Virus record (IMG/VR): IMGVR_UViG_3300032116_000106
Coordinates: 19,682 to 83,681 of that record
Reading direction: 5' to 3' (one strand)
Origin: a virus
Length of the DNA stretch: 64,000 nt
Below the pieces are notes generated by a model, which saw only the letters and a program-made list of their open reading frames with translations, had not been told where the DNA came from and made no database searches. How positions within the stretch are numbered: the first letter of the stretch is position 1; every line of letters starts with the position of its first letter. The translations under genes and the position numbers were made by a program. Shown here piece after piece: positions 5,735 to 32,143 of the stretch.

Positions 5735-6206
5735 ATAAACCTGTTATTTGCATTGTGTATTTTGGCTCCATTCCCATATTACCGCTAAGATGGGGTTGTC
5801 CATATCTAATTACTTTAAAATCCATTTTTCTCCACTTTATAAATGGTTCATTATCTATTTCAAAATAATGACCAGTCTTCCATTCTTCCAAAAAGAAATT
5901 TAACCTACATACTCCATACTTATCACAATTATTCTTTTTTGAAAATTGATAAAATGTATCAAAGTGTTCAGGTATAGTTTGACCTGGCATTTGTTTTATT
6001 ACACTTAATGAATAATCTGAAAATATTTGCTTTGCGAAAGTATGATATTCTTCTGGCAAATCAAACGTTTGGTAGTATTGAGTATTCTTATCAGTAAATC
6101 CTGCGGTAATATACTTTTGATTTTGCTCATCATATTCCGCTGAATTCCCTTCTAATGATACATTATTGGAAATTGTACTAAAATTTATATTATGTATTGT
6201 TAGCAT
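5673..6206 (-). CDS. Cupin/2OG-Fe(II) oxygenase-like protein
   Basis: PGQTIPEHFD...PHLSGNMG...KYTMQITG gives an HxD...H triad. Confidence 0.65.
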   Translation of the reverse strand: MLTIHNINFSTISNNVSLEGNSAEYDEQNQKYITAGFTDKNTQYYQTFDLPEEYHTFAKQIFSDYSLSVIKQMPGQTIPEHFDTFYQFSKKNNCDKYGVCRLNFFLEEWKTGHYFEIDNEPFIKWRKMDFKVIRYGQPHLSGNMGMEPKYTMQITGLYEQFTRSEAYTKPKNQTRHY

Positions 6207-7155
6207 ATCCTAAAGGAAATCCGTTTCTAAATTCAGAACCCATTTTCGGAACTATCATTTGATAGCCTTGTATTAATTGTTTTATACCTCTATCCAAATC
6301 CCACTCTGGTATCCACCCAGCTTCCTCTATTTTTGCGTTTGATACGATGTAATCCCTTTTATCAGGATCTTCATAATAATCGTTGTATGATACCGCAAAA
6401 TCCTTTACGTGGGTTTGTATCTTTTCTAACAATTCTTGTTTTGATAGATTGGCTGAACTTAATCCTACATTAAATATTTCACCTCTATAAAAATCATAAT
6501 TACCCAACATAAAAAGAAAAGCCGATGCCACATCTTCAATATGAATAAAATTTCTTTTAAAGTTCTTTTCAAATACTACTATGTATTTATCGGTAATTGC
6601 TTTATAAACAAAATCGTTTACTAATAAATCAGTTCTCATACGAGGTGATACACCAAATACGGTCGCTAATCTGAATGTGATTGCCGATGTGTTTGCTCTC
6701 AAAAAATTCTCAGCATCACATTTTGTTTGTCCATAAACTGATATAGGTGTAAGGGGTGATTCTTCAGTACACTCGGTTTGACCTATTCCTATTCCATATC
6801 CACTATTTGTATTTGGATATAAAATCTTTTTATCCTTTCCGAATCTAACAATGTTTACTATTTGTTTAAAGTTAATTTCTTTTGCCAATTGAGGGTCTGC
6901 CGCACACGCTGGAAACCCAACTATTGCAGCTAATGGAATAATCACATCAGCATCTTTACACAATTGTTCTAATAATCTTTCATTACGAACGTCTCCATAA
7001 ATAAACTTAAAATTTGGATTAGATGTGTATTGAAGTAATGATGTTTGGTTAAATAGCAATTTATCCAATACAACTACTTCATAATCAGCTTTTAGCATTT
7101 TATCTACTATAACTGAACCTAAATAACCTGCTCCTCCTGTGATTAATATTTTCAT
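6190..7155 (-). CDS. NAD-dependent NDP-sugar epimerase/dehydratase
   Basis: TGGAGYLG, YGQTK, RLATVFGVSPRMR. Confidence 0.9.
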   Translation of the reverse strand: MKILITGGAGYLGSVIVDKMLKADYEVVVLDKLLFNQTSLLQYTSNPNFKFIYGDVRNERLLEQLCKDADVIIPLAAIVGFPACAADPQLAKEINFKQIVNIVRFGKDKKILYPNTNSGYGIGIGQTECTEESPLTPISVYGQTKCDAENFLRANTSAITFRLATVFGVSPRMRTDLLVNDFVYKAITDKYIVVFEKNFKRNFIHIEDVASAFLFMLGNYDFYRGEIFNVGLSSANLSKQELLEKIQTHVKDFAVSYNDYYEDPDKRDYIVSNAKIEEAGWIPEWDLDRGIKQLIQGYQMIVPKMGSEFRNGFPLGYANNT

Positions 7156-7886
7156 TGTTCTTCTAATTTATCTATAATGTTATTTTGTATATCATTTACA
7201 TTAAAATCTTGATACAAAAGAGCGTGATTACCGTTTCCACTACTATCCCACGCTTTAAATCTATTAAGGTTTTCCAAAGTGAACTTATATTTTGCTAATG
7301 TAAATCTTCTAACAATTTCAGGATTAAATAAATCTAATTCTTCTTTGTTTAGAACCTTTTCCATAATAATTACATCATCAATCCAACCCTTATACCACCA
7401 ACTATATTCTTGTAAATGTGGTTCAATATAATTTGGTGCAGCGGCTCCGATAAATAATGGTGTATTATCATAACTTACAACAGGATATGTTATAGGTGCT
7501 TCTTTGGTTTCACCATTATAAGTAACTCTAAAAATTTTGTTGGTATAATCTACTGAAAAGAATATCTCTTGCCATTCCTTTTCAAAATCGTAAATAAAGG
7601 TGATGTTAATGTTTTCCGCATCAATCGGTTTACTCATCCATAATTGTGCACTTACAACATAAAAATCATTTTCTTTATTTACAAATACACCGGAATGAAG
7701 CCCACATTTAGAAAATATACCATAGATTTCATCTCCTCTATCTTCAGTTTTTTGTATCTTAAATTTACTATAAATTGTAAAATCCTTTTGGAAAAAAGTT
7801 TTTAAATTTGGTTTCTTCGATGTGTTAAAAGTTGATTGATCCCAAACTTTATAACTAATGTCTTTATTGAAATATAAGTGATTCAT
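7152..7886 (-). CDS. Stand-alone LamG/concanavalin A-like jelly-roll protein
   Basis: LFIGA...YKGWIDDVII...L and terminal WDSSGNGNHA, matching the LamG inserts of the GT7 genes. Confidence 0.7.
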   Translation of the reverse strand: MNHLYFNKDISYKVWDQSTFNTSKKPNLKTFFQKDFTIYSKFKIQKTEDRGDEIYGIFSKCGLHSGVFVNKENDFYVVSAQLWMSKPIDAENINITFIYDFEKEWQEIFFSVDYTNKIFRVTYNGETKEAPITYPVVSYDNTPLFIGAAAPNYIEPHLQEYSWWYKGWIDDVIIMEKVLNKEELDLFNPEIVRRFTLAKYKFTLENLNRFKAWDSSGNGNHALLYQDFNVNDIQNNIIDKLEEQ

Positions 7887-9298
7887 TATCTAATACTTTT
7901 ACATAAATTCCAAAATTCTTCTAACTCTGGAAAAGTTTTTACAAAATCAGTTCCTCTTCTTCTATCATGCTCACTAAAAAATCTATAAAAATCTTTTCTA
8001 TCTCTTTTTACAGTATGGTCTTCTTTTGGAGCAACAACCACATCGTATATTCTTCTCAATTTGTGAATTTCTACATCGGTATATCCAATCGGATTTTGTG
8101 TTCCCAAACTTTCGTAGAAGTCCATCAATTGTGCTTGCTCAAATACTTCTTTGTGCCAATCATCGGTTATGATGTTAGCCGCCTGATGATGTGGATGTCT
8201 TAAATACGAACTATCCAATCCAATAGGATAAAACCAATACCTATCAGGATTCGTAAATTCTTTTTTAAGCTGATATACATCTTTAATCAATTTTTTATAT
8301 GATGGGATACTTAAAAGATTATAAGTTCCCATAATCGAAATAGTAAGTTTCGGTATTTCTTCCAATAATTCAGAACATCTATCATACCATTGATTATAAT
8401 CAAATCCATTTCTAATATAATTAGCTTGCTCTCCCCACCCATCACAAGAAGTGAATATAATAAATTCTCTTACCAACCCATCACTACTTATTCTTTTTAT
8501 TTTTTCTTTGGCCTGTTGGTAGAGTTTTTCCGGTGCCCCCAAATTAGAATTTATTGCCAACTTTAATTTTTGGTTTGGATTATCAATTACATAATCAAAT
8601 ACTTTAAATGTATCTTTATGTAATAAAGGTTCTCCTCCGGTTATTCTAAAGTTTAACAATGATGGATATAAATTAGGCCACCATTTCCAAAATGCCTCTA
8701 CATAAGGATTATGTTCGGTTTGTTTATATGGTTGCTTACCTTCTTTGATAATATGGTCTAATCCATTATGACGAGTTGAAGTTGGATAAGCTCCAAACTG
8801 CTCAATCTCTTCCCACCATTGTGTTGAGAATTGAGGATAGCAATACGAACATTTAAAGTTACACGCATTACTAAATGAAACTTCAACATACGAAGGATTT
8901 ACATCATCCATATAAGATGAATTTTTAATCTCATCAAAATGAGGCCAAGCCCATTCTTCCGCAGATTTAAAAGTTCTATCAGAAAATTCGTTTGAATTAT
9001 CTTCTACCTTCCAACAATAATCGCATTCGGTAGGCCTTAATCCTTGCAACATTTCTCTTCTTAATTCCTTTTTATATTTGGTATTATGAAGTGCAGAAGG
9101 GTTATCTACTAAATCTTCTTTAATAATTTTGTGTATACCAGGATGGTGGCAACTATGATTCTGTCCGATGTGAAGATGCAATGTAACTTGCTTCCACTTT
9201 GCTAAACAAAATCCTTTACCCACCGAATTTAATTTTCTTCGTATCTCCGAGTATCGTTCTGTATTATCCATATTTATTTGGTCTGGATTTCGAAACAA
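7886..9298 (-). CDS. Radical SAM protein with N-terminal Twitch/SPASM-like Cys cluster (paralogue 2)
   Basis: CNFKCSYC, TGGEPLL. N-terminal CLAKW...SCHH...CDYCW. Confidence 0.9.
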   Translation of the reverse strand: MFRNPDQINMDNTERYSEIRRKLNSVGKGFCLAKWKQVTLHLHIGQNHSCHHPGIHKIIKEDLVDNPSALHNTKYKKELRREMLQGLRPTECDYCWKVEDNSNEFSDRTFKSAEEWAWPHFDEIKNSSYMDDVNPSYVEVSFSNACNFKCSYCYPQFSTQWWEEIEQFGAYPTSTRHNGLDHIIKEGKQPYKQTEHNPYVEAFWKWWPNLYPSLLNFRITGGEPLLHKDTFKVFDYVIDNPNQKLKLAINSNLGAPEKLYQQAKEKIKRISSDGLVREFIIFTSCDGWGEQANYIRNGFDYNQWYDRCSELLEEIPKLTISIMGTYNLLSIPSYKKLIKDVYQLKKEFTNPDRYWFYPIGLDSSYLRHPHHQAANIITDDWHKEVFEQAQLMDFYESLGTQNPIGYTDVEIHKLRRIYDVVVAPKEDHTVKRDRKDFYRFFSEHDRRRGTDFVKTFPELEEFWNLCKSIR

Positions 9299-9932
9299 AA
9301 TCCATTATTTTATCGTGCTTAAATTTTACGGGCTCTGATATGAATGCATGATTACCATTACCACTATTATCAAATATTTTAAAGTTTGTTTTTTCTGATG
9401 TATCTAAACAACTAAATAAACTATCTTCCTGCAAAACTTCTGATGTTTTTAAGTTAAAGTTTATTTCATGTGTTTCCAACAATCTATCATATAATACAAC
9501 TAAATCTAAATTACCATTTAATATATTTTTTTCAGTTGTTTTCTCATGCACATTATCCGATAAAAAAGTAAAGTAATTATCTTCTTTTACTACATTTTGA
9601 AAATCACATTTAAAATCATATCCTATTTCAGTATTCAAATCAGTATAAACAAACTTTTGCTTTCTATTATCAATTCTTATAAAGAAATCAAACGTTTTCT
9701 TTACATCACATACTATATTAGAGAAGTATTCATCTCCAACTTTATATTGAAAATGAATTTTACCACCCTCAATTATTAATGTTTCAGAAGAGAGATTTCT
9801 CCTAAACAAATAACCAAAAGGTTTATTCACATCATAACTACCTTTTAATCTTAAAGAATACCCATCATTTAAAGATGTAAAATTTTTAAGATTAGTGCTG
9901 TTGGTAGATTTATTTGGTATATAAAAAATCAT
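9264..9932 (-). CDS. Divergent stand-alone LamG-like protein
   Basis: LNGNLDLVVLYDRLL and FKIFDNSGNGNHA, homologous to the C-terminus of 7152..7886. Confidence 0.55.
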   Translation of the reverse strand: MIFYIPNKSTNSTNLKNFTSLNDGYSLRLKGSYDVNKPFGYLFRRNLSSETLIIEGGKIHFQYKVGDEYFSNIVCDVKKTFDFFIRIDNRKQKFVYTDLNTEIGYDFKCDFQNVVKEDNYFTFLSDNVHEKTTEKNILNGNLDLVVLYDRLLETHEINFNLKTSEVLQEDSLFSCLDTSEKTNFKIFDNSGNGNHAFISEPVKFKHDKIMDFVSKSRPNKYG

Positions 9933-11326
9933 TATGCTTTACCTTTTCTACATTTTTTATAAAATTCTTCATATTCAGGAAATACTTCTAAAAAGTTAGT
10001 TCCTCTTCTCATATCGTGGTGTCTTACAAAGATAAAGAAATCTTTTCGATTTTTCAAGAAAGTTGAATCATCATCGTGATTTTTCATCCATTCCGCTATT
10101 CGTTTAACCTTTGTGATTTCAATATCGGTAAACCCATATCCATCATCACCCACTCTAACTTGTTCATAGAAATCCATAAGTTGTGCCTGTGAGTAAACCT
10201 CATCTATCCACTCATTATCCAATACCTTAACACTTTGATGTGGAGGCCAACGAAGATATGAACTATCTAATATAATCGAACTACCATAATACCTTTCCGC
10301 ACTATGGTATTCTTTTTTAATCTGATACACATCCTTAATTAAACCTTTATATGATGATACTGAAAGAGCGTTGTAAGTGCTCATTATTATAATTGTTAAT
10401 TTTGGATTTTCGGATAATAATAGATTAACCCTATCCATAAATAAATTATAATCAAATCCATGTCTAATGTAATTCGCTCTCTCACCATGTGCATCGCAAG
10501 ATGTAAAAAGAATAAATTCATTTACTCTTTCCTCATCCATCAATTTTTTAATCTTAACTCTAAATTCATTAAATATTTTTTCAGGAGCATTTAGGTTACT
10601 ATTAATCGATAGGTTTAGATTTTTATTTGGATTTTTTGATTCGTTGATAAAATCTAAAATGTCAAATGTATCTTTTGCCAAAAGTGGCTCACCGCCCGTA
10701 ATTCTGAATGTATGTAAATCCTTATACAAATCAGGCCACCATTTCCAAAACGCTTCTACATAAGGATTTCTTTTATTATGTGGAATTGGCATTTGGTCAG
10801 TTCCCTTCAAATAATCTAAATTGTTAAAATTAGTTGATGTAGGATATGCACCATGTTGTTGTATCTCTTCCATCCATTGTGAACTAAAAGCCGGCCCACA
10901 ATATGAACATTTAAAATTACAAATGTTTGAAAATGAAACCTCAACATACTTTGGGTTTATATCTTTAATACCTTTGGTTTTTAATACCTCATCAAAGTAA
11001 GGTAAAGACCACGGTTCGGATGATTTATAAATTCTATCTGAAAAATCATTTGAATTATCTTCGATGTTCCAGCAATAATCACATTCCTTTGGTCTTAACC
11101 CTTCCAACATTTCTCTTCTTCTATTTTTCTTAAAAGAAGTGTTGTGTAGTGCAGATGGATTTTGTGCAATTTCCATCTCCGATATTTTGTGTGTGACAGG
11201 GTGATGACAAGAGTGGTTATGGCCGGTTTGTAATTGTAATGTAACTTGTGTCCATTTGGCTAAGCACATTCCCTTACCAACCCCATTTAATTTTTCTTTT
11301 GTCGCCTGAAAGTGTTCGTTTAACAT
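9932..11326 (-). CDS. Radical SAM protein with N-terminal Twitch/SPASM-like Cys cluster (paralogue 1)
   Basis: CNFKCSYC, TGGEPLL. Colinear with 7886..9298 along its full length. Confidence 0.9.
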   Translation of the reverse strand: MLNEHFQATKEKLNGVGKGMCLAKWTQVTLQLQTGHNHSCHHPVTHKISEMEIAQNPSALHNTSFKKNRRREMLEGLRPKECDYCWNIEDNSNDFSDRIYKSSEPWSLPYFDEVLKTKGIKDINPKYVEVSFSNICNFKCSYCGPAFSSQWMEEIQQHGAYPTSTNFNNLDYLKGTDQMPIPHNKRNPYVEAFWKWWPDLYKDLHTFRITGGEPLLAKDTFDILDFINESKNPNKNLNLSINSNLNAPEKIFNEFRVKIKKLMDEERVNEFILFTSCDAHGERANYIRHGFDYNLFMDRVNLLLSENPKLTIIIMSTYNALSVSSYKGLIKDVYQIKKEYHSAERYYGSSIILDSSYLRWPPHQSVKVLDNEWIDEVYSQAQLMDFYEQVRVGDDGYGFTDIEITKVKRIAEWMKNHDDDSTFLKNRKDFFIFVRHHDMRRGTNFLEVFPEYEEFYKKCRKGKA

Positions 11327-12762
11327 TTACAATTTATTAAAACTGAATTATTTCCTATTTCTTCTATACCTAACAATTCGTATGTTAAGCTATTCATACC
11401 ATCATTTTTCCAATCGTATTTCCCCTGCTGCATTTCTAAAATATATCTTCTTTCATTTCTCGCAGTAGTTTCTCCTTTTGCCCACTTACCATTAACCAAT
11501 CCTTCAGTTTGATGTGGTAGACATTCAAATCTACCATTTCTTCTATGAGGGATTACGGTAGAAGGTATTTCTATTTTCTCTTTCGTAAAATTTACATTTG
11601 TAATTTTACCATTATTTTCATTACCACTTAAATCTTCCAGCAATCCATCATTAAAAGAATTGAAATCATAGTGAAGCTGTAATCCACTTTCCTCACACTC
11701 AAATGGTATATTTTTTATTTCATTATCGGTCAAACATCTATCATACAATCTTACTTCTGCTATTTGACCTTTGAAAAATTTGTTTGGATAATTTTTATTT
11801 ATTGATGGAGATGTTCCCAAATAATAACTTTCACTTCCATATCTTTTTAAATCTCCATTATATTCCATAGGTGATTGAACTCCTGTTCCAAATCTCGCAT
11901 CTGTTTCTCTGCCATTAAGGTAAAAATGTATTTGCTTATTGTATGAATCAACTTTTAATGTCACCCAAGTCCAAAGGTTCTCATATCTCTTCATCCACAT
12001 ATATTGCATCTCTCCTTCATTATTCCATAACATCGAAGTAAATGCTCTACTATTATTATATGAAATGCCATAATCATATCCAGGTCTTCTAAATACAGGA
12101 TACTCCCAAAATCTTCTTTCATTATCACCAATCAAATAAATTGGAATCTTTTCCTCTTGCTGATGTGCCTTTACTAATAATGATAGAGTGTGAGAACGAT
12201 TACTTAAAAATCTTATTGAACGACTTTGAGGTATTTCAATAAAAGAGTTTTCTCCATTAAAATTTGCTATATCAAATTCGGTTTTGGGTCTGATATATGT
12301 TTGGTCTGCCATTCCATTGATAGCACATCTCCAAAATAGGTCATCATCTTCCATACCCCAATCCCAATAATCATTCGAATAACCATTCGTTTTATAAACC
12401 TGTTCTTTTGTAAATAAAACTGCACCACCAAAGTATTCTTCATACTTTAAGTTGTAATCGGTTTGTGAAATATGAACTGCCAAATGTTGTGGCAAATCTT
12501 CGTTATAACTATAATCACAGCTATCATCTTCCGGTATCATATCGATGTCATGCCATACAATATAATCACACCCATCTTTAAATGCAACATCGGCTGCAAT
12601 GTTTTTCATCTTACCCCTATTGAATAATTTATCATCACATTGGTGGGCAAAATAAATCTTATGCTCAATACCCCTATCCTTCAAAAATTTATGAACTCTG
12701 GGTGAGAATTGTGCCAAATGCTCTTCTCTATTTCTATATGGAACACATACTCCTAATTTCAT
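11320..12762 (-). CDS. GT7 (beta-1,4-galactosyltransferase-like) glycosyltransferase with inserted LamG domain
   Basis: VPYRNR, FNRG, HDIDM, YFGG, WDWGMEDDD; then a LamG insert (FKGQIAEVRLYD...DLSGN); then the GT7 C-terminus (GRFECLPH...DGMNSLTY). Confidence 0.88.
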   Translation of the reverse strand: MKLGVCVPYRNREEHLAQFSPRVHKFLKDRGIEHKIYFAHQCDDKLFNRGKMKNIAADVAFKDGCDYIVWHDIDMIPEDDSCDYSYNEDLPQHLAVHISQTDYNLKYEEYFGGAVLFTKEQVYKTNGYSNDYWDWGMEDDDLFWRCAINGMADQTYIRPKTEFDIANFNGENSFIEIPQSRSIRFLSNRSHTLSLLVKAHQQEEKIPIYLIGDNERRFWEYPVFRRPGYDYGISYNNSRAFTSMLWNNEGEMQYMWMKRYENLWTWVTLKVDSYNKQIHFYLNGRETDARFGTGVQSPMEYNGDLKRYGSESYYLGTSPSINKNYPNKFFKGQIAEVRLYDRCLTDNEIKNIPFECEESGLQLHYDFNSFNDGLLEDLSGNENNGKITNVNFTKEKIEIPSTVIPHRRNGRFECLPHQTEGLVNGKWAKGETTARNERRYILEMQQGKYDWKNDGMNSLTYELLGIEEIGNNSVLINCKC

Positions 12763-14204
12763 AGTTCTACTGAAATGAATTTAGTTTTATCACTTAATTT
12801 TTTTTCTTCTACTTTTTTATATCTCAATGTATTCAGGCCTTCAATCGAATAAAATAACATTTCGTTTTTTAATGAGTTATATCTTAATTGATTTTGTCTA
12901 GTTTCTTCATGCACCCAACGATTTCCTTCAACACTATTACTACTATGTTTAAGTGATTTAAATGAACCATCTTTTTTGTATGGAACAACTGCTTCAATTA
13001 AAAACTTTTTATTCATTAAAGTATTGTTTTGGCAATTTACGATTTCAGCATCGAAACCATTACCACTTAAATCAATCAATTTATCTCTTCTAAAATGTTT
13101 AAAATCATAATAGAGTTTTAACCACTTCGAAGATTTATACTTACCAAAATTATTAAGTAGGGATTTCTTAGCCGATTCTTTATATATTTGTTCTATTTCA
13201 GGCTTCGATAATGTTTTATCAAATACCGCAAACTCATTTACAAACCCTTTAAAATAATAGTTTTCATAATTTTTTGCCGGATTTGCAACACCCAAATAAA
13301 AATCTTCTACATTATAATCGTATAACTCATCAACATATTCGGCTCCGATATAAGTGTTATTGATATATAATTCAATCATCTTATTACGAGGGTTACGATT
13401 AATTACAGCGTGAACCCACATATCCGGACTAATGTCTGAAACTATACTTTTTGATTTTTCATCTTTATCCCATATATCCAATTTAAATCTATTAAAACTA
13501 TTGAATGATAAAGAGAAGTTAAAACCCGGTATAGAAAATATAGTGTATTCATCATACTCTCTATTTAGGTCATTAACTAAATCATCTGGTTTAAACTTTA
13601 TTGAAATTGAAAATTCATCTTCAAATATAGGTTTAAAGTTTTGAAAAGGAATACTGATAAATGAATCTATACCATTAAAATAAAAATAGTTTAAGTTATA
13701 TTCATCGTTTTGAATTCCAAATGGCCTAGTATCTAAACTCAAATTACATTGAATACATCTTTGTAACAGGTCATCATCTTCAAATCCCCATCCCCAATAT
13801 TCATTTGAGTATCCATTTATAATTTTAAAATCTAATTTATTTACAATCGTTACACCGCCAAAATAGTTGTAAAAACTTTCTTCTCCATCAACTTTATCCG
13901 CTAAATGAGTAGGTCTATCACAATAAGAATAATCAACCTTAATGGGTAACATATCAACATCATGAAAACAAAAATAATCAAATTCGTTTCCGCTTTCTTT
14001 ATATCCGATGTTTAATAATTTACCTCTATTAAATGGTTTCTTATCCTTTTGCTCAATTACAAAAATCTCAAAAGGAATTTTCTTTGAGTTTAAATAATCT
14101 TCTAAATAAGGAATAAAGACATTAAGATGTGATTCCCTATTTCTATAAGGAACAATAACCGCTAATTTTTTTTGTATTTCTTTTTTATTAAGGTCTTTCA
14201 TCAT
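12759..14204 (-). CDS. GT7 glycosyltransferase with inserted LamG domain
   Basis: VPYRNR, FNRGKLLNIG, HDVDM, WGWGFEDDD; LamG insert; GSFKSLKH...EGLNTLRY. Confidence 0.88.
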   Translation of the reverse strand: MMKDLNKKEIQKKLAVIVPYRNRESHLNVFIPYLEDYLNSKKIPFEIFVIEQKDKKPFNRGKLLNIGYKESGNEFDYFCFHDVDMLPIKVDYSYCDRPTHLADKVDGEESFYNYFGGVTIVNKLDFKIINGYSNEYWGWGFEDDDLLQRCIQCNLSLDTRPFGIQNDEYNLNYFYFNGIDSFISIPFQNFKPIFEDEFSISIKFKPDDLVNDLNREYDEYTIFSIPGFNFSLSFNSFNRFKLDIWDKDEKSKSIVSDISPDMWVHAVINRNPRNKMIELYINNTYIGAEYVDELYDYNVEDFYLGVANPAKNYENYYFKGFVNEFAVFDKTLSKPEIEQIYKESAKKSLLNNFGKYKSSKWLKLYYDFKHFRRDKLIDLSGNGFDAEIVNCQNNTLMNKKFLIEAVVPYKKDGSFKSLKHSSNSVEGNRWVHEETRQNQLRYNSLKNEMLFYSIEGLNTLRYKKVEEKKLSDKTKFISVEL

Positions 14205-14418
14205 TATTAGGTCTTTCGGTATCTCTCATTGGCCTAGATACACTTCCTAAATTTTTAGCTTTTAAGATAGTATGAAATTCATGCAAATACCATTCAACTC
14301 TCGTCCCCCAAGCTGATTTATCGATTTCAAACATCCAATCATTCAAATCTCTAAGCGAAGAAGCAATGTCTTCCAATGCTCTCACTTGTCTTTCTTCTAA
14401 TGTTTTTTGATCTGCCAT
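14188..14418 (-). CDS. Small Trp-rich helical protein, tandem paralogue A
   Basis: Aligns with 14425..14661: EER.VRA.E.I..SL....DWM.E.D...W..R.EWYL.EF....KAK. Confidence 0.8.
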   Translation of the reverse strand: MADQKTLEERQVRALEDIASSLRDLNDWMFEIDKSAWGTRVEWYLHEFHTILKAKNLGSVSRPMRDTERPNNDERP

Positions 14419-14424
14419 AAACTA

Positions 14425-14661
14425 TTATTGAGGTCTTTCGTTTGATTTATCAGGTCTTCCGGTATTACCAATCGTTTTCGCTTTTGCAATCATATAGAAT
14501 TCGTTTAAATACCATTCCATTCTTTCAGACCAACCTTTGGTATCCAATTCATACATCCAATCCTGAATGTTTTCTAACGATGTTCCAATCTTTTCAAATG
14601 CTCTAACTGCTCTTTCTTCAATGTCGATGTTTGAAGTTTCGGGTTTCTTTGATGTAGCCAT
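14425..14661 (-). CDS. Small Trp-rich helical protein, tandem paralogue B
   Basis: Paralogue of 14188..14418; tightly packed in the operon. Confidence 0.8.
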   Translation of the reverse strand: MATSKKPETSNIDIEERAVRAFEKIGTSLENIQDWMYELDTKGWSERMEWYLNEFYMIAKAKTIGNTGRPDKSNERPQ

Positions 14662-14662
14662 T

Positions 14663-14908
14663 TTATTTGTTTTTTAATTTATTTTGTGTTCTTTTTTTGA
14701 AAAATCCTGTTGGGAAAGGTGATTGAGTTCCACCATAATAACCTCTCATTAATTCTAACGAAGAGTATATAATAGGCATCATATATGAAAAATTATCAAT
14801 CGTTTTATTATTTTCAAACGATTCTAATATTTCAGCAATCTTTTCTACCCTTTCAACAATTTGTTCATTGTTAATAACCTGTTTTATTATAGAACTACTT
14901 TTATCCAT
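14663..14908 (-). CDS. Small hypothetical protein, possibly a distant third paralogue
   Basis: Fills the gap in the operon. EQIVERVEKIAEILE resembles ERAVRAFEKIGTSLE. Confidence 0.6.
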   Translation of the reverse strand: MDKSSSIIKQVINNEQIVERVEKIAEILESFENNKTIDNFSYMMPIIYSSLELMRGYYGGTQSPFPTGFFKKRTQNKLKNK

Positions 14909-16377
14909 TTTGTTTTTTCGTTTATATCTTCTTCAGATAAGATTTTGTAATTTAAATAATTTAATCCAATTTTTTTTGTATCAACTTTTCCAGTCAAAAC
15001 TTCATCAAAATATATTTGTGAGTTTTGAACTATATCTGGATCCCAACTATAAAACTTTTCAGTTATCTTATCATCATCATCGTGAATTAAGGATTGATAC
15101 TTACCCATAATTCTAGAAGGAACTGAAAGTTTTGATGTTTTTTGAATTACATCGGTTTTAATAAATTTAGAGTATTCGGTGAAATCTATTGAATGAACTT
15201 TAACGTGATTCATCGTAATAGAAGAATCTAATATAAAATCATGATAAATCTTATTAAAGTTTATATTAAGAACTGGCTCTAAATCAGTATTTTGTTTTTT
15301 ACCATTATACCCTTCTAAATAAATGTTATCAATCTCTCTTTGTTCCAATACATAATCAAACATTAATAGATTTGATAATTTACCTTTGTATGGAGATGAA
15401 TTTAAACTTGCACAACCTACATAAATTGGTTGATAACTATAATCAATTAGGGGTGTAACTATATACGGTTGCTGGTCGCCCGTATATGGAACTTTAACAC
15501 TATTAAGATATAACTCAACTACTTCTTTGTTATAATCCACAACCATAGCAATATGATTCCATACACCTAATTCATATTTTTTGTATGCGAAACAATACTG
15601 CCTATCATTATCATAAACATTTACCCTAATAGTTCCATCGTTTTGTAAAGATATACCGGTGTTATAACCAGGCCAACTTACCAAATACTCCTCATCTTTC
15701 GCAATTTCATCTTTACTAAACCAAAGTGATACGCTAAAACTATCTTTCGTTAAATCTTTTATCTGATTATTTGGAAATATTTTTAGGTATAAATCATTAT
15801 CTTTAAAATCAATATACTTAACATTTTCCGAATACTTCTTATCGGTGATTTTAATTTTTTCAAATTCGTAATACGAGTCTATGCGAGGAAAAACAATTTC
15901 TTCATCTAACTCTATATCATTCATTCTACATCTATGTAATAAATCTAAATCCACAAACCCCCATCCATAATACTCATTTGAATACCCATTAACGGCTTCA
16001 AAATCTTCTTTGGAGAACATTACCACTCCACCGAAATATTCCAAATATGGGAGCTTAAATGTATGTGCCGATACCTTCGTTGCCATATGGACGGGATAAC
16101 CTCCAATGTGAATGTAATTGTAATCACAATCATCACTTACCGGCAGCATATCTATATCATGAAAGCAGAAATAATCGAATCCTTCTTTGAATAGAGAGAA
16201 TCCGATATTACATAACTTACCATAATTAAATGGTTTATCATCTGATTGTTCTATAATAAAGATTTCGTAATCCACATCCTTATTCTTAAAGAATTCAGTC
16301 ATATGTGGAACGAAGGTATCTAACTGCTCCCTTCTATCTCTATACGGAACTATTATTGCTATTTTAGCACCTGTCAT
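14887..16377 (-). CDS. GT7 glycosyltransferase with inserted LamG domain and variant active-site motif
   Basis: VPYRDR, FNYGKLCNIG, HDIDM, YFGG, WGFVDLD in place of WGxEDDD; LamG insert; GKYQSLIH...GLNYLNY. Confidence 0.85.
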   Translation of the reverse strand: MTGAKIAIIVPYRDRREQLDTFVPHMTEFFKNKDVDYEIFIIEQSDDKPFNYGKLCNIGFSLFKEGFDYFCFHDIDMLPVSDDCDYNYIHIGGYPVHMATKVSAHTFKLPYLEYFGGVVMFSKEDFEAVNGYSNEYYGWGFVDLDLLHRCRMNDIELDEEIVFPRIDSYYEFEKIKITDKKYSENVKYIDFKDNDLYLKIFPNNQIKDLTKDSFSVSLWFSKDEIAKDEEYLVSWPGYNTGISLQNDGTIRVNVYDNDRQYCFAYKKYELGVWNHIAMVVDYNKEVVELYLNSVKVPYTGDQQPYIVTPLIDYSYQPIYVGCASLNSSPYKGKLSNLLMFDYVLEQREIDNIYLEGYNGKKQNTDLEPVLNINFNKIYHDFILDSSITMNHVKVHSIDFTEYSKFIKTDVIQKTSKLSVPSRIMGKYQSLIHDDDDKITEKFYSWDPDIVQNSQIYFDEVLTGKVDTKKIGLNYLNYKILSEEDINEKTKWIKVVL

Positions 16378-17228
16378 TATATTAAAACTATTTGTTTGGT
16401 TAGTTTATTCCAATTACCGAAAGATACAAAGGATTTTTCAGATTTCCAAGTCCATTCAGAAAAATCTTCTAAATTTATTGAGAGTTTATTTTTTGCCAAA
16501 GCCCTATACATTTTTCGGTATTCTTCTGAAAAAGCGTAATCAGTTCCTACATTTGCAACAGCTCTTAACCTTTCTGCACAAGTACTATCCCATTTAAAAT
16601 GATGAACTTGTGTAAAACCCTTTTCAATTGGATAACGAAGGGGGTGATTCCATCCCTGCCACCTCCAAGTTGTTTGTCCATTTATTTCTGCATAATGTTG
16701 CCCCGCAGTTACCTTTATCCTACCCTTCATAAGAGTAACCTTATTTGGACAGGCTCCACTTAAAGGGTATCTAAAAAAAGAACTAATCGGAAATGCTTCC
16801 CATAAATCAGTATCTTTTGTCACCAAAGGGAAACTACCATTCTCACCAATCTTATCTATAAAACCTCCTGTTACAAATTCCCAACCATTAGTTTCACACT
16901 CTTCAATTATAGAACCTATATCATCCCAGTACAATTGTAACTCATCATCATCTGAAACTATCCACCAATCATTAGGATATAAGGATTTAATTTCATTGTA
17001 AAAAGATGTTACTGCTTCCCAGTTAAATACCTTCTCTTTTCTTTCATGATATACACATCCAAATTCTTCGGCTATATCTCTTGCTTCTTCGAATGATTTT
17101 TTATTATCCCTATCAGTAGAGTAATAATTTACCAAATGAATTTCACTCACATTTTTTTTGTAATGTGATAACATTTGCCTCAAAGTATTTGTTCTATACC
17201 CAGTGACAGTAACTAATTTTGGTTTCAT
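16377..17228 (-). CDS. GT-A fold glycosyltransferase (GT2-like)
   Basis: MLSHY, WWIVSDDDEL (DxD), GQH, VHHFKW. Confidence 0.75.
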   Translation of the reverse strand: MKPKLVTVTGYRTNTLRQMLSHYKKNVSEIHLVNYYSTDRDNKKSFEEARDIAEEFGCVYHERKEKVFNWEAVTSFYNEIKSLYPNDWWIVSDDDELQLYWDDIGSIIEECETNGWEFVTGGFIDKIGENGSFPLVTKDTDLWEAFPISSFFRYPLSGACPNKVTLMKGRIKVTAGQHYAEINGQTTWRWQGWNHPLRYPIEKGFTQVHHFKWDSTCAERLRAVANVGTDYAFSEEYRKMYRALAKNKLSINLEDFSEWTWKSEKSFVSFGNWNKLTKQIVLI

Positions 17229-18067
17229 AAATTATCTATATATTTCTTCAATCTATCTTTTGGAAACCAACCCAATCTTCTAACTTCATCATCTTTTCTC
17301 CTACTCATTGAGTATTGCCCTAACCCACCTATTTTTTTTTCAATTTGTAAACTGGGAAACCTATTTTTAAACATTTCATAAACATTATGCACACTATATG
17401 AAACATCATTACCCATTTCCCAACCACCTAAATTAATTTCTTTTGTTTTTATTAATCTTACTAAACCATCAACAACATCATCGATATATGTAAATGGTTT
17501 TAATTGAGTTCCTAAATTATGATAGGTAATAGGTAAATTATTGTTTATCTGATTTCTCCATTTTCCAATTAATGCCGCCATATGTGATTCAATTAATTCA
17601 CCTGGCCCATATACATTATATAATCTCACTATTGTTACATCAACACCCAATCCATTTCTATAAAAACGGCATAACTCTTCACCCATTTTTTTTGATGTGG
17701 AATAAGGTGATATAGAATGATGAACCGATGATGAACTTGCAAATACTACTTTACACCCATTTCTTTTTGCATATTCTAATACACTTTTAGTTCCATCAAC
17801 ATTTGTGGAAAAAGTATAATTTTGATGCTCATATGATACCCCAACTCTACTAAATGCTGCTAAGTGATAAATCCAATCATAAGGTTTATCACTAATGTTT
17901 TCCATTGCCCTTACATCTCCCCCAACAAACTTAGCGCCTTCCGCCACTTTTGCTTCTCTACCGATATACTGATTATCCACTATATGAACTTCGTGTCCAT
18001 CTGTAATCAATTGTTCGGAAAGTGCATATCCAATAAATCCACATCCTCCCGTAACTAAAATTTTCAT
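17225..18067 (-). CDS. NAD-dependent NDP-sugar epimerase/dehydratase
   Basis: TGGCGFIG, ASSSS, YSTSK, RLYNVYGP. Confidence 0.9.
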   Translation of the reverse strand: MKILVTGGCGFIGYALSEQLITDGHEVHIVDNQYIGREAKVAEGAKFVGGDVRAMENISDKPYDWIYHLAAFSRVGVSYEHQNYTFSTNVDGTKSVLEYAKRNGCKVVFASSSSVHHSISPYSTSKKMGEELCRFYRNGLGVDVTIVRLYNVYGPGELIESHMAALIGKWRNQINNNLPITYHNLGTQLKPFTYIDDVVDGLVRLIKTKEINLGGWEMGNDVSYSVHNVYEMFKNRFPSLQIEKKIGGLGQYSMSRRKDDEVRRLGWFPKDRLKKYIDNL

Positions 18068-18819
18068 TTCCTTCTTATTAAAGTAAGACCTGTTGATGAT
18101 GGTTTATTTTTCACAATACCATGATTAAAAAGATTAAATACTTCCCATTTATTACCATCAATTTCTTTTGCTAATTTTATAGGCCCACTCCAATCATCGT
18201 GATCTCCTCTATCTTTCACTTCTTGTGTTACAATAAACTTATCATGATATTTCGGGTCAGTATCATGCATTGAAATAATACCATTCTCACTCATTATCTG
18301 AGAATATAATTCAAAATCTTCTTTTACATTTTCATACGAATGACCTGCATCAATATGTAAATAATCTATTTTTATATCTTGCAATACGAAGAAATCATAG
18401 AATGCCTCCTCGGTAGTTGAGTTTATAATACGAGGGTGAAATGTTCTTCTAAAAAATGATTCTTCCGCAAACCAATCCACAACCCCACCAATACCATTCA
18501 TAGCATCTACAACATAAGTTGAACCTATATCACCATAGTTAAAATCAGCATTTCCTTCAAAGATGTTTTGTTTGTGTAAATCGTATCGAGCCTGTGTCAT
18601 TATACGAGGAATAAATCCACCACCGCTACCCAAACAAACACACACTCTGGCCCTCATATATTGGATTAGAGAGTAGATAATTAGTCCATCACCTAAATGT
18701 GTATCAGTAGCTCCATGAGACCAACGGTAGGGAACAGGATTGATTTCCTCTTCACCTCTAAAATCAAATTCTAAATTGTTGGTGAGATACTTTTTTATGT
18801 AGTTAAGGTCTTGTAACAT
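18064..18819 (-). CDS. Class I SAM-dependent methyltransferase (Methyltransf_24-like)
   Basis: CLGSGGG, IDYLHIDAGHSYE, GIISMHD. Confidence 0.85.
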   Translation of the reverse strand: MLQDLNYIKKYLTNNLEFDFRGEEEINPVPYRWSHGATDTHLGDGLIIYSLIQYMRARVCVCLGSGGGFIPRIMTQARYDLHKQNIFEGNADFNYGDIGSTYVVDAMNGIGGVVDWFAEESFFRRTFHPRIINSTTEEAFYDFFVLQDIKIDYLHIDAGHSYENVKEDFELYSQIMSENGIISMHDTDPKYHDKFIVTQEVKDRGDHDDWSGPIKLAKEIDGNKWEVFNLFNHGIVKNKPSSTGLTLIRRK

Positions 18820-28959: not shown

Positions 28960-31900
28960 CGGAACTAAACCCGCTATCTTTCTTAATTTCTAAAAGAGTA
29001 TCCACCACATCTCTCATAGAATCAATATGTGAAATTACAATCACAAATTCAAATTGAGTTTTTAGATAAGCAAATGCCATAAATAGTGATTGTAAATTCT
29101 CACTATCTAATGTTCCAAATCCTTCATCAATAACTAAAAAGTTTGGTCGAGGAAGATTACAAATGTTAATTAAAGCAACTCTAATTGCTAATCCACTAAT
29201 AAACTTCTCCATACCACTACACATTTCCAACGGCCACTTTCTACTATCTCCATAATTGATATAAGCATTTACATTCTTACCATCCATTTGTAGATTCATA
29301 CTGAACTCTACTATTTGACCTAAGATGTTATTAATCTCACCTTCAATAGATGGGAGTGTTTTAGAAATCAACTCATAAGAAATACCATCTCTTTTCACCG
29401 CATCTAAATAGTATTCGTATAATTTGTTGGTTTCTTCTAATTCTTTTATCTTCGCGATGTTTTCTTCTATTGTAGTCTTTTCTTGCCTCGCTTTGGATAT
29501 GTTGGTATTTATATGAAGAATCGTATCACTTTTTCTTTTTAACTCCCTCTTAATACCATCAACAATTTCTTTAGTATCATTAATATTCTTTCGAAGTTGT
29601 TTATTAGTTTCGATTTGTTCTTTGTTCTTATGATACTCATCGATGTTTGAAGTAGCAACCTTTATACTATCTTCACAATCCCTTATATCTAATTTTGTTT
29701 TTGAGATCTGTTCTTTGATTCGACTAACTAATGTTTTGGAATCATTTATCTCTTTATGTTTTGTCTGATATGTTTTATATGCTTCTTCTATTCCATTTAG
29801 TATTTCCAAAGTTTGTCTAATACTCAACACATCAGATAATGCCTCGTCAACAATACTTTCTAATTGAGGTAAAGAAGTTTTTGCATTCATTGCATCTTTT
29901 ACAAATGCATTATCACAACAAAACTCACAATTCGGGTCGTATTTATGATTATCTAAATGTTTGATTTTTTCTATTGCACCATCTAAATAAATCTTAGCAC
30001 TCGAATGAACTTTTTCAGCTTTAACTAAATCATCTTTTTTTGTTGCATAATCAGAGTATGCATATTCTATATCAACACTACTATCTCCTATTGTAAAATT
30101 AGATAATACTTTTTCTTGCTCAACTAATTGTAATACTATCTCTTCTGCCTGAATAAGTTGGGTATCCATTTTTTCTAACTTATCAATATGAGATTCTAAT
30201 GAAGATGTTAGTGAATTTAATTTATTTGTTTCAACATCTAAATCTAATGTGATTGTAGTTTGGATAATCTGTGATTCTAAATTTGATAAAGTTTTTTCTA
30301 CTTCAGTTTTATCTAATTCCAAATCTTCTTTTTCAGATTGAAGTAAATCAAATTGAGATTGACCATCATTAATAATCGTTTCTAATTCCGCCAATCTTTG
30401 TGAGAAGTCATCTTTCTTAAAATTCTTTAATAGGATAGCCGCTTCTTTATTATCTTCATTTACTACATCGAATAATTTATCAAATACATTTACACCGATG
30501 TATTGTGCTAAAATATCTTTTCTTTCCGATTGTGATTTATCTATGAACAATGCGTTATTACCTTGTAACGAAAGTGATGTCATTACAAAATCTTCATAAG
30601 TTCCTAAATACTTTCGGATTATATCGTTTGTATCTCTTCTTTCTTCACCATTCAAAGATTCCTCAATTCCATCTACAATTCTATAAAAGTTTACATTCAC
30701 TTTTACATTCCCACCTTTTGTAGTATGAGCTTCTCTTTCAATGTAATAATCTACGCCATCAATTTCAAAATTAAACTTACAATTGAATGTATCTTTTTGA
30801 TTATTCATAATATGGGTAGCCTTAAATGCTCTACTACACTTATCAAAAATACAAAATGAGAGTGAATCGAAAAGAGATGATTTACCTTGTGTGTTTGGTG
30901 CAAATAATCCTATTATACCCCTTGCATTTTCAAAGTTTATTTTGTTCCCTTCACCATATGAAAACATATTACTGAATTCAAATGTTTTAGGAATCCATAG
31001 TATATTATCAGTTTCTTCGTGAGTAATTTTTAGATTTACATTATTATTTATCTCAACAATTTTATCTAATGTTTTATCATCTAATAAAAACTGCCTTTCC
31101 AAATACTCTCTAATCAATCCATTCTGAACATTCGGGTCTTTAACATTACCCGCTAAGTTTCTAGCGTTTCGGTTTTTTGATTTTAATGAATTAAGAGTAT
31201 CTTGTTTGGTAATTGTAATTTCATTTACCTTAAACATTTGTTGTAATTCAGCTGATACTAATTTTATATCACTAACTTCGGTATCAGAAAAACGAACTCT
31301 TAAACGCGGTTGTTTAGGTAATTTAGTTCCAATCTCGTTTCTTACCCATTGAGGAATCACACCGTTTATAACATCAATCGTTAGGTAACCATAATCATTG
31401 TGAATGTTAAATTCTTCAAATGTTTCAGTATCGACATTCCAAAGAAGGTATCCATGATTCTCTAAATACTCTCCATGATTTTGTTGAACTACGGATCCGG
31501 CGTAAACTACTATTGGTTTACCATTTGCTCTATCTCTTTGTTGAACAACTTGTCTTTTGTGTATATCCCCCATCAATACCATATCAAACCCATCAAACAT
31601 ATCAGGTGTGAAATTGTGAGAAGATACAACATAACCAATATCGGTTTTTGCCGCATCAACGGGCCCGTGGAAGAAACAAATTTTCTTATTACCATTTACA
31701 TCAACTCCTTTCGGCCAATTTTCTTTCTTATCCAAAATCGAATAAACAGTAAAAGTTATATCATCGGTGATTTGATATACACCAGTATCTCTTAAATAAA
31801 CTAAATTTGGGAGTGAAAGATTATCACATATAGGAGTTAGAACATCTAAACGGTCTTTATTGTTTAGATTACAATCATGATTTCCCGTAATAACAAATGT

Positions 31901-32143
31901 AGGTCTTCTCTTAGCACATTCAGTAAAGAACCAAGTGATTTCCCTTACTAATTCAGGAGACATTTCAGTTTTAGCGTGGGCTATATCACCTGCTAAATAG
32001 ATTATAGAATCCTCTAAATTTTGGGAATCCACATCAGCTAAAAACTTATTTAATACCTCTCTATACTCTTTATGCCTTTTTAGATTACGAATATGTAAAT
32101 CGGCCAAATGATAGATGTATTTAATGTTATCTAATTTAATCAT
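28949..32143 (-). CDS. Fused Mre11/SbcD phosphoesterase + Rad50/SbcC ATPase (T4 gp47-gp46-like)
   Basis: DLH, GD, GNHD, HG, GDIH; Walker A PNTQGKSS; Q-loop SLQG; zinc hook CEFC; signature CSGME; Walker B/D-loop IDEGFGTLD; ISH. Confidence 0.93.
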   Translation of the reverse strand: MIKLDNIKYIYHLADLHIRNLKRHKEYREVLNKFLADVDSQNLEDSIIYLAGDIAHAKTEMSPELVREITWFFTECAKRRPTFVITGNHDCNLNNKDRLDVLTPICDNLSLPNLVYLRDTGVYQITDDITFTVYSILDKKENWPKGVDVNGNKKICFFHGPVDAAKTDIGYVVSSHNFTPDMFDGFDMVLMGDIHKRQVVQQRDRANGKPIVVYAGSVVQQNHGEYLENHGYLLWNVDTETFEEFNIHNDYGYLTIDVINGVIPQWVRNEIGTKLPKQPRLRVRFSDTEVSDIKLVSAELQQMFKVNEITITKQDTLNSLKSKNRNARNLAGNVKDPNVQNGLIREYLERQFLLDDKTLDKIVEINNNVNLKITHEETDNILWIPKTFEFSNMFSYGEGNKINFENARGIIGLFAPNTQGKSSLFDSLSFCIFDKCSRAFKATHIMNNQKDTFNCKFNFEIDGVDYYIEREAHTTKGGNVKVNVNFYRIVDGIEESLNGEERRDTNDIIRKYLGTYEDFVMTSLSLQGNNALFIDKSQSERKDILAQYIGVNVFDKLFDVVNEDNKEAAILLKNFKKDDFSQRLAELETIINDGQSQFDLLQSEKEDLELDKTEVEKTLSNLESQIIQTTITLDLDVETNKLNSLTSSLESHIDKLEKMDTQLIQAEEIVLQLVEQEKVLSNFTIGDSSVDIEYAYSDYATKKDDLVKAEKVHSSAKIYLDGAIEKIKHLDNHKYDPNCEFCCDNAFVKDAMNAKTSLPQLESIVDEALSDVLSIRQTLEILNGIEEAYKTYQTKHKEINDSKTLVSRIKEQISKTKLDIRDCEDSIKVATSNIDEYHKNKEQIETNKQLRKNINDTKEIVDGIKRELKRKSDTILHINTNISKARQEKTTIEENIAKIKELEETNKLYEYYLDAVKRDGISYELISKTLPSIEGEINNILGQIVEFSMNLQMDGKNVNAYINYGDSRKWPLEMCSGMEKFISGLAIRVALINICNLPRPNFLVIDEGFGTLDSENLQSLFMAFAYLKTQFEFVIVISHIDSMRDVVDTLLEIKKDSGFSSVKF

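Follow-up and report, generated by a model that had tools for sequence, protein, structure and literature searches.

The 64,000-nucleotide stretch of viral DNA analysed here, which we call the window, comprises positions 19,682 to 83,681 of the IMG/VR record IMGVR_UViG_3300032116_000106, an 83.7-kb virus record judged about 45% complete. Its guanine-plus-cytosine content is about 30%, and its minus strand carries every gene of at least 120 amino acids (aa). We are concerned with ten contiguous open reading frames (ORFs) on that strand, at 7152-16377, which an earlier reading of the letters alone (the original prediction) had described as a module of enzymes organised by LamG domains. All ten are present, and we refer to them as g1 to g10, from low to high coordinate (Table 1). 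They encode three glycosyltransferases of family 7 (GT7), two radical S-adenosylmethionine (SAM) enzymes, two standalone LamG-family proteins and three short proteins, which we call mini-proteins. To judge by sequence, the parts are drawn from known families: GT7, the LamG jelly roll and the radical SAM family NF033640. The same LamG-fold module accompanies every GT7 and radical SAM enzyme, either as an insert, as the next gene or, in some relatives, as a fused domain.

The proteins g5, g6 and g10 belong to CAZy family GT7, and within it with the beta-1,4-galactosyltransferases (beta4GalTs), by their Pfam scores, by superposition of the GT-A fold (for g6) and by their motifs. The Glyco_transf_7N and Glyco_transf_7C scores are 67.2 and 69.4 bits for g5, 89 and 65.8 for g6, and 80.4 and 64.2 for g10 (cut-offs 27 and 23 bits); Laminin_G_3 (PF13385, cut-off 27.6 bits) is likewise above its cut-off in all three, at 45.5, 46.6 and 59.5 bits. 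In a sequence search, residues 12-161 of g6 match beta4GalT1 with an expect (E) value of 1.4e-33. An alignment of g5 with 41 homologues, 42 sequences in all, contains the metal-binding DxD motif (here DVD), the acidic motif WGWG-EDDD and a C-terminal histidine. Residues H81, D82, D84, W139, G140, D143, D145 and H420 are invariant in this alignment, g5 and g10 included, and H420 we take to be the equivalent of the metal-ligand histidine of beta4GalT1.

The invariant histidine and a conserved DGLN motif lie in the last ~75 residues of the GT7s, as part of the catalytic domain. By sequence, the C-terminal piece of g5 alone finds no beta4GalT (its best match is an unrelated chain, E 0.87), and a comparison of folds was therefore needed to place the C-terminus in the GT7 domain. 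In the structure model of g6, the sole GT7 that we modelled (predicted local distance difference test, pLDDT, 90.4), residues 7..481 superpose on residues 175..398 of beta4GalT1 (1tvy_A; Z 28.2, root-mean-square deviation 2.5, 214 aligned), and LamG-like and pentraxin domains superpose on residues 169..405 with Z of 17-22. Because the beta4GalT1 match spans 7-481 and the LamG fold occupies 169-405, the model indicates that a LamG insert of ~235 residues splits the catalytic domain. Thus, of the three fusions in cis that had been proposed, the pairing itself stands, but the end-to-end arrangement does not: on the g6 model, LamG sits inside the glycosyltransferase. In bovine numbering the insert presumably falls just ahead of the long, flexible loop from which the acceptor site is formed. 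A search of BFVD returned giant-virus GT7s and many viral LamG proteins, and no listed match spans both parts (best query TM-score 0.40).

One of the three, g10, deviates from the others. Its acidic motif reads GWGFVDLD, with V and L at the nearly invariant positions E142 and D144 (EDDD in the others), and its terminal LamG motif is degenerate (LDSSITMNH); the DVD motif, the two invariant aspartates and the C-terminal histidine are retained. From these substitutions, g10 may have an altered specificity or a reduced activity.

Among the standalone proteins, g1 scores 22.2 bits with Laminin_G_3, below the cut-off, and g3 has no Pfam match. A hidden Markov model was built from the ORFs that come next after radical SAM genes in related viral loci, 69 of the 72 unique ones forming one family; it scores g1 at E 2e-63, g3 at E 1.5e-39 and residues 188-383 of g6 at E 2e-24. 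In BLAST, g1, which has the C-terminal motif WDSSGNGNH, matches the LamG parts of g6 and g10 (E 2e-6). When the standalone family is compared with the GT7-LamG alignment by hhalign, the probability of homology is 99.6% (E 1.6e-24, 218 columns), and the aligned region extends from the first strand as far as the terminal motif that both have (F..DF....YKVWD.SGNGNH versus L..YDFK....IDLSGN). The modules in cis and in trans are therefore related, as had been claimed. The model of g3 (pLDDT 86.2; predicted template-modelling score, pTM, 0.83) superposes over residues 1-201 on the LamG-like domain of PAPP-A (Z 16.6), on a dimethylformamidase domain (16.7), on PTX3 (16.0) and on CRP/SAP (15), and Foldseek likewise matches it to LamG/pentraxin jelly rolls (E 7e-8). 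Thus g1 is assigned to the LamG jelly rolls by homology, and g3 is predicted by its model to be a LamG/pentraxin jelly roll, in keeping with the original prediction.

The D.SGN-type motif on which that prediction had remarked is real: K185, D188 and N194 are at least 90% conserved in 68 sequences, and the motif lies inside the fold. A circular permutation of LamG, an idea built on our first assumption that the D.SGN element stands before canonical LamG_3 domains, was dropped, since sequential structural alignments to pentraxins and PAPP-A continue through the motif. The pentraxin likeness of these modules is one of fold: the only match to the pentraxin family PF00354, in g10, scores 18.4 bits against a cut-off of 25.

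The two radical SAM enzymes, g2 and g4, are paralogues, as predicted (57% identical by BLAST). Both match the NCBIfam model NF033640, 'twitch domain-containing radical SAM protein', at 324.2 and 324.9 bits, respectively (cut-off 170); the general Pfam model PF04055 alone remains below its cut-off of 29.5 bits for the two (25.6 and 27.1). The cysteines C136, C140 and C143 of the CX3CX2C motif are invariant in 72 sequences, and so are four extra cysteines, C21, C40, C82 and C85, which form an N-terminal set. By their score, the CX3CX2C motif and the extra cysteine set, g2 and g4 are both N-twitch radical SAM enzymes. Relatives of g2 have a start codon nine codons downstream of its TTG start. A profile of the family finds no close solved structure (the best is MoaA, E 0.0019), and therefore no reaction type can be read from structure.

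The pairing of these enzymes with LamG in trans, through the next gene, is conserved. We collected 85 unique radical SAM ORFs with at least 45% identity and with room downstream. A LamG-family ORF follows within 250 nucleotides in 76 of them, and in 81 once the filters of HMMER are turned off; the default filters had masked LamG domains in five downstream ORFs and in the 931-aa fusion described below. Behind two of the four radical SAM genes left unpaired, the next ORF has 197 aa and a degenerate terminal motif. In genomes with two close radical SAM genes, a LamG-type ORF comes after each one.

The same association is also found within single proteins. Among 120 listed homologues longer than 812 aa, 14 have LamG-family domains fused at their N-terminus (domain E 1e-18 to 1e-28), two domains in 13 cases and four in one. 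One of these fusion proteins, of 931 aa, is the occupant of the radical SAM position of the cassette in two loci (L108 and L109). Since the adjacency is conserved and fusions exist, we take the pairing to be functional; physical binding between the partners is likely. Other fusions join the two chemistries: in proteins P0229 and P0231 a transferase domain containing Glyco_transf_7C is fused to an N-twitch radical SAM domain, and in P0225 family 2 glycosyltransferase (GT2) domains are fused. We read these as 'Rosetta-stone' support for the suggestion that glycosyl transfer and radical chemistry may act on one substrate.

Two further observations concern the wider radical SAM family. First, 74 of the 120 listed long homologues have 800-849 aa. 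Three of them that we inspected (P0136, P0145 and P0151, from the class of 816-829 aa, P0136-P0220) have ~350 N-terminal residues with repeats of the form H-(S/T)-(S/T)-P-Y-(V/I)-x-x-R, a part without Pfam match in P0151, which may be another, non-LamG accessory module. Second, there is a distant radical SAM class, 33-37% identical and ~480-520 aa long, which often comes after the epimerase downstream of the cassette (L011-L033, L060, L096-L097, L108); its next ORF is unrelated and often of ~178 aa, instead of LamG.

Table 1. Genes of the block at 7152-16377 and of its immediate surroundings, in window coordinates.
Gene	Coordinates	Strand	Description
	6190..7155	-	NAD-dependent (nicotinamide adenine dinucleotide) sugar epimerase/dehydratase; follows the LamG partner in many loci; Pfam Epimerase E 1.3e-33
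g1	7152..7886	-	244 aa; standalone LamG-family protein, partner of radical SAM g2; common type in related loci
g2	7886..9298	-	N-twitch radical SAM enzyme, 470 aa from TTG start
g3	9264..9932	-	222 aa; standalone LamG-family protein of divergent type, partner of radical SAM g4
g4	9932..11326	-	464 aa; N-twitch radical SAM enzyme
g5	11320..12762	-	GT7 (beta4GalT-like) with inserted LamG; core member, adjoins radical SAM in nearly all loci
g6	12759..14204	-	GT7 with inserted LamG (residues ~169-405); core member
g7	14188..14418	-	76 aa; mini-protein of the conserved mini family; 17-nucleotide overlap with the start of g6
g8	14425..14661	-	78 aa; mini-protein, paralogue of g7
g9	14663..14908	-	81 aa; no BLAST kinship to g7 or g8; only in a subset of loci
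g10	14887..16377	-	third GT7 with inserted LamG; optional, one clade only
	16377..17228	-	283-aa protein of no known family; always precedes the GT7/mini-protein genes; part of the conserved cassette
	18064..18819	-	Methyltransf_24 SAM methyltransferase, head of the cassette; Pfam E 7.6e-11

We now turn to the question of which of these genes travel together. We found relatives of the radical SAM enzymes on 564 viral contigs; for the GT7-LamG proteins the number is 567. The loci examined are the best 80 from each of these two sets (radical SAM-seeded and GT7-seeded, respectively) and 34 that were methyltransferase-seeded. Gene order could be compared in 70 non-redundant loci of sufficient length, and 61 of them follow exactly this scheme: the 283-aa protein, an optional third GT7, an optional g9-like ORF, one or two mini-proteins, GT7, GT7, radical SAM, LamG. 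The 283-aa protein is part of 70 of 70 architectures by construction, and it is also present in the GT7-seeded loci. In the 79 GT7-seeded loci, which were not deduplicated and some of which are incomplete, a mini-protein is present in 77, immediately before the first core GT7, and a radical SAM gene in 76 (directly after a GT7 gene in 75); 61 have the radical SAM-LamG pair. Usually the cassette is preceded by a Methyltransf_24 enzyme and a 331-aa protein of no known family and followed by a sugar epimerase and a thiamine pyrophosphate (TPP) enzyme, and a large fibre gene often lies upstream.

Thus, in line with the original prediction, the genes do not assort independently, but the ten-gene block that it drew is not the conserved unit, which is both smaller and wider. 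The conserved core consists of one mini-protein, two GT7-LamG proteins, one radical SAM enzyme and one LamG protein, preceded by the methyltransferase and the 283-aa protein; two of the three mini-proteins, the third GT7 and the second radical SAM-LamG pair are lineage-specific. Apart from a few other loci, that second pair is limited to the closest relatives. The third GT7 is confined to a single clade, for which one change on a tree of 77 rows suffices, and g9 is sporadic across loci. A polyproline protein (21965-23071) and a 2-oxoglutarate (2OG) oxygenase that lie nearby are shared with few loci beyond the closest relatives, and therefore the cassette is independent of them. Neither Pfam nor PHROGs matches the 283-aa protein; even when Pfam matches with E up to 1 are admitted, the flanking proteins of no known family yield nothing credible, and PHROGs offers no family for these, for the LamG partners, for the mini-proteins or for g10.

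The cassette is widespread. At the protein level, GT7-LamG finds 2231 database proteins at E 1e-5 or better. DNA nearly identical to the block is present in 14 runs from 11 studies, labelled lake, freshwater, riverine or 'fungus' metagenome. A nucleotide search with the block finds nothing in 50,697 deposited phage records, and tblastn finds no match to the GT7-LamG protein there; the radical SAM enzyme matches one jumbo Ralstonia phage, at 39%. In metagenome-assembled genomes the full cassette is found in four contigs only (L119, partial, L144, L161 and L178), all with phage-like gene order. Two of the four are labelled Pelagibacter or Pelagibacterales, which is only a lead to the host.

The block is embedded in an array of 26 genes, 71-23071, that are tightly packed: neighbouring genes overlap at 19 of the 25 junctions, and no gap exceeds 31 nucleotides. 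The array includes three NAD-dependent sugar epimerases/dehydratases, a TPP enzyme, an aminotransferase-like protein, a methyltransferase and a 2OG oxygenase, and none of its 26 proteins contains a membrane-helix-like stretch. Directly upstream of it, at 23071-28701, is the gene of the fibre protein, which has 1876 aa and includes a Peptidase_S74 chaperone domain. At 28739-28746, shortly ahead of this gene, stands TATAAATA, the sole minus-strand copy outside a gene in that stretch. Contigs of 150-330 nucleotides from RNA libraries of four runs match g1, g2/g3, g4, g5, g6, g8 and g10 with zero to few mismatches; they are strandless and DNA carry-over is possible, so they give only a hint of transcription.

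How might these parts work together? The explanation that we favour, and hold with moderate confidence, is that the locus, a cassette of uncultured aquatic myophage-like viruses, encodes soluble enzymes that assemble and tailor a glycan, with LamG as the shared module that docks them onto the acceptor. Donors would come from the nucleotide-sugar enzymes; sugars would be transferred by two or three GT7 enzymes akin to beta-1,4-galactosyltransferases, and their product would be tailored by the N-twitch radical SAM enzyme; for both kinds of enzyme the chemistry is suggested by family membership. LamG would dock each enzyme onto one shared acceptor, that is, the growing glycan or its protein bearer. 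Such docking would order transfer and radical tailoring on the same molecule, much as lectin domains do in some animal glycosyltransferases. The usual role of the LamG fold is to bind carbohydrate or protein ligands at the rim of the sandwich. Because one LamG family is found on every enzyme, attached in three genetic ways, we consider a common docking role the most likely one. The cassette is probably co-transcribed with the tail fibre, so that both would be made together, in one soluble pathway. Since the array lacks membrane proteins and is linked to the fibre, we lean towards an acceptor that is soluble and is probably a phage protein.

Several points weigh against this explanation, and we gather them here. 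The LamG fold by itself is silent on the ligand, and we identified no sugar-binding residues in it. In cellular homologues of the radical SAM enzyme, 40-50% identical and mostly from Bdellovibrionota, the genes occur singly or as tandem arrays with as many as seven paralogues (loci L121-L195, for example L156, L169 and L171), and these loci contain no LamG, GT7 or mini-protein genes; therefore the radical SAM family needs no LamG in general. The motif TATAAATA is not enriched in the window, with 12 copies found versus 21.7 expected, and the reading of the region as a late operon is therefore weak. Our loci were fetched with cassette genes as queries and are a best-scoring subset, so that the counts describe the nearer relatives.

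The prediction of complexes, which had been proposed as a check on the whole module and was made for the pair g4 and g3, gives weak support for a complex of the two proteins. The score is 0.56, with the best of three controls at 0.01, and the partner has a pLDDT of at least 78; the individual runs, however, gave 0.68, 0.56 and 0.00, and they agree in at least 2% of contacts. Of 80 solved complexes, 58 pass the mark that we apply to such scores, as do 2 of 110 mismatched pairs; scores at the mark but no higher than 0.60 were obtained for only 7 of the 80 solved complexes and for both of the mismatches that pass.

The last point against our explanation is the published view of similar clusters. 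The pelagimyophage 'host recognition cluster' described in PMC7029224 is rich in glycosyltransferases and contains radical SAM gene cassettes, and the relevant passages of that paper favour modification of the host O-chain by such glycosyltransferases. By extension, the target of the present cassette could be the host envelope: the enzymes would remodel the O-chain of lipopolysaccharide (LPS), a capsule or a surface glycoprotein, for instance against superinfection, borrowing the lipid-carrier, flippase and export functions of the host. The flanking nucleotide-sugar enzymes, which are typical of O-antigen loci, fit this alternative as well. What tells against it is the lack of any membrane helix in the 26 array proteins, together with the lack of a Pfam match to polysaccharide transport or polymerase families in the scans of the array, although no search was aimed at an initiating transferase, flippase or polymerase and such genes could lie elsewhere, as the record is only about 45% complete. 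Moreover, remodelling the surface late in infection would presumably be of little gain to a lytic phage. On balance, we regard an envelope target as rather unlikely.

The docking idea can be extended further. LamG could be a portable substrate-recognition element for the radical SAM enzyme, a counterpart, for glycans or glycoproteins, of the recognition element (RRE) used with ribosomally synthesised and post-translationally modified peptides (RiPPs). Being present in the GT7s too, it would allow the phage to assemble a glycan, and to tailor it by radical chemistry, on the mini-protein or on fibre proteins. We consider this improbable. If it were so, the radical SAM enzyme would catalyse a new reaction, on a sugar bound to a polymer, and the cassette would make a new kind of phage glycoconjugate.

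The mini-proteins themselves deserve attention in this respect. The original prediction grouped three of them: g7 and g8 are indeed paralogues (52% identity in BLAST) from a conserved family, with 80 unique members in our loci, but g9, besides being sporadic, has no BLAST relation to either. Members of the family share a strongly conserved core of ~45 aa, LEERKVKALEKIA..L..L..W......K.EW..R..YYL.EF. Their tails are charged, differ from member to member over a length of 7-49 aa, and are rich in K, E, T, D, S and P. The only look-alikes in the Atlas are unnamed viral clusters. In one form of tail (14188-14661; loci L005-L118) a stretch rich in serine and threonine is followed by RP..(D/K)..ER, or by VRPKKDIE. 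Tails with an S/T-rich stretch and RP occur in 27 of 28 unique loci with a third GT7 and in none of the 41 without. This link corresponds to one change on the tree (77 rows) and to 1 independent pair; we therefore rejected it as evidence, since it has no statistical weight, and retain it as a lead only.

One could suppose, then, that the mini-protein is the acceptor or carrier, its core, presumed to be helical, being recognised by LamG as a RiPP leader is by an RRE, and its tail being glycosylated and radical-modified, so that the product would be a small glycoprotein. The division into conserved core and variable tail, the constant position before the first core GT7 and the tails that accompany the third GT7 would all be in line with such a role. 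Twitch and SPASM radical SAM enzymes often act on peptides, and mycofactocin provides a precedent for a product that is made by a radical SAM enzyme and later glycosylated. Nevertheless, the link between tails and third GT7 has no statistical weight on the tree, and the core resembles a small folded protein rather than a leader. Scans of the ten proteins with Pfam and NCBIfam matched no RRE or PqqD-type family, and we found no fusion of a mini-protein to an enzyme, only two proteins of 160 aa (P0241 and P0242) that are 85-96% identical to g8 over its length and look like two tandem mini-proteins merged into one gene. Taken together, these findings make a mini-protein acceptor quite unlikely.

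We assign much the same low probability to one of the two mechanisms suggested by the original prediction, in which the LamG domains oligomerise like pentraxins into a multi-enzyme complex; they would then serve as protein-protein scaffolds, not as substrate binders. Such a scaffold would be consistent with the presence of one LamG family on every enzyme, with the twofold and fourfold LamG arrays fused to radical SAM enzymes and with the oligomeric pentraxins among the structural neighbours. Yet membership in PF00354 is not supported, as noted above, and equally good neighbours, namely the LamG-like domain of PAPP-A, the dimethylformamidase domain and BACOVA_03559, form no ring oligomers to our knowledge.

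Finally, it is very improbable that the cassette hypermodifies phage DNA, with GT7s glycosylating hydroxymethylated bases and the radical SAM enzyme tailoring the adduct: it lies in a fibre/host-recognition array, away from nucleotide-metabolism genes, and we know neither of LamG as a DNA-binding fold nor of GT7 enzymes among the DNA glycosyltransferases. The points in favour are a thymidylate-synthase-family gene at 34999-35976 and the phage glycosyltransferases, cited in PMC12619734, that decorate DNA with diverse glycans.

It is instructive to compare the docking cassette that we favour with systems already described. The animal beta-1,4-galactosyltransferases 1 and 7 (GT7; 1tvy, 4irq and 3lw6) share the fold and the motifs of the phage GT7s, with 33-35% core identity and Z of 27-28. 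They differ in that the phage enzymes are viral, are without membrane anchor or stem, and have the ~235-residue LamG domain between the acidic-motif helix and the C-terminal catalytic part. In the polypeptide GalNAc-transferases an appended ricin-type lectin domain steers the enzyme to an already glycosylated acceptor. This is the working principle that we propose here; the lectin domain, however, is a ricin beta-trefoil rather than a LamG jelly roll, it is appended rather than inserted, and there is no radical SAM partner.

On the radical SAM side, the maturase systems PqqE-PqqD and MftC-MftB depend on a partner that presents the substrate, either in trans or as a fused domain. Their genetic arrangement is like that of the cassette, with a small partner next to the radical SAM gene in most genomes and fused to it in others, but in the present cassette the partner is a LamG jelly roll, not a winged-helix RRE, and the auxiliary cysteine cluster is N-terminal. 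BtrN, NeoN and HygY are twitch-type radical SAM enzymes, with one auxiliary-cluster domain, that oxidise or epimerise carbohydrates. Tailoring of this kind is what we propose for the cassette; no sequence relationship to them can be detected, and the cassette enzymes differ in having their twitch-like cysteine motif at the N-terminus and a LamG partner.

Arrays near phage fibres that are rich in glycosyltransferases and bear radical SAM genes have been described in outline (PMC7029224). The passages of that paper on pelagimyophage and cyanomyophage clusters mention neither the GT7-LamG architecture nor the radical SAM-LamG pairing nor the mini-protein. The same passages report that its freshwater genomes are without LPS-related and radical SAM genes, whereas the DNA of the window, which has radical SAM genes, occurs in lake, river and freshwater metagenomes. 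In the literature searched, supplementary tables excepted, and in deposited phages, we found no LamG insert in a beta4GalT-type domain, no N-twitch radical SAM enzyme with an obligatory LamG partner or a fused LamG, no conserved mini-protein of this kind and no cassette like the whole. Searches that combined Glyco_transf_7C with phage returned no literature, and among papers on twitch domain-containing radical SAM proteins none deals with NF033640 in its title or in the opening of its abstract.

We regard the cassette as a phage glycan gene cluster with an unusual, testable organising principle. It is known that abundant aquatic phages have glycosyltransferase-rich arrays beside their tail-fibre genes, but not what these arrays make or act upon; the present cassette is common in viral contigs yet absent from cultured phages. 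If LamG does dock the enzymes, this would explain what brings soluble phage enzymes into order on a single acceptor, it would give the N-twitch radical SAM family NF033640 its first functional context, and it would provide a natural case of a lectin domain inserted beside a beta4GalT-type acceptor site, which is of interest for glyco-engineering. The identity of the acceptor would decide between glycosylation of the virion and of the host surface.

Two genes elsewhere in the window may also be recorded. At 59908-61593, among baseplate and other structural genes, lies a Nol-like carbamoyltransferase (PHROG 1601, E 1.7e-112), possibly another sugar-tailoring enzyme outside the cluster. At 28949-32143, a protein of 1064 aa combines a Metallophos nuclease domain with AAA_23/SMC_N, apparently as a fusion of Mre11-like and Rad50-like parts.

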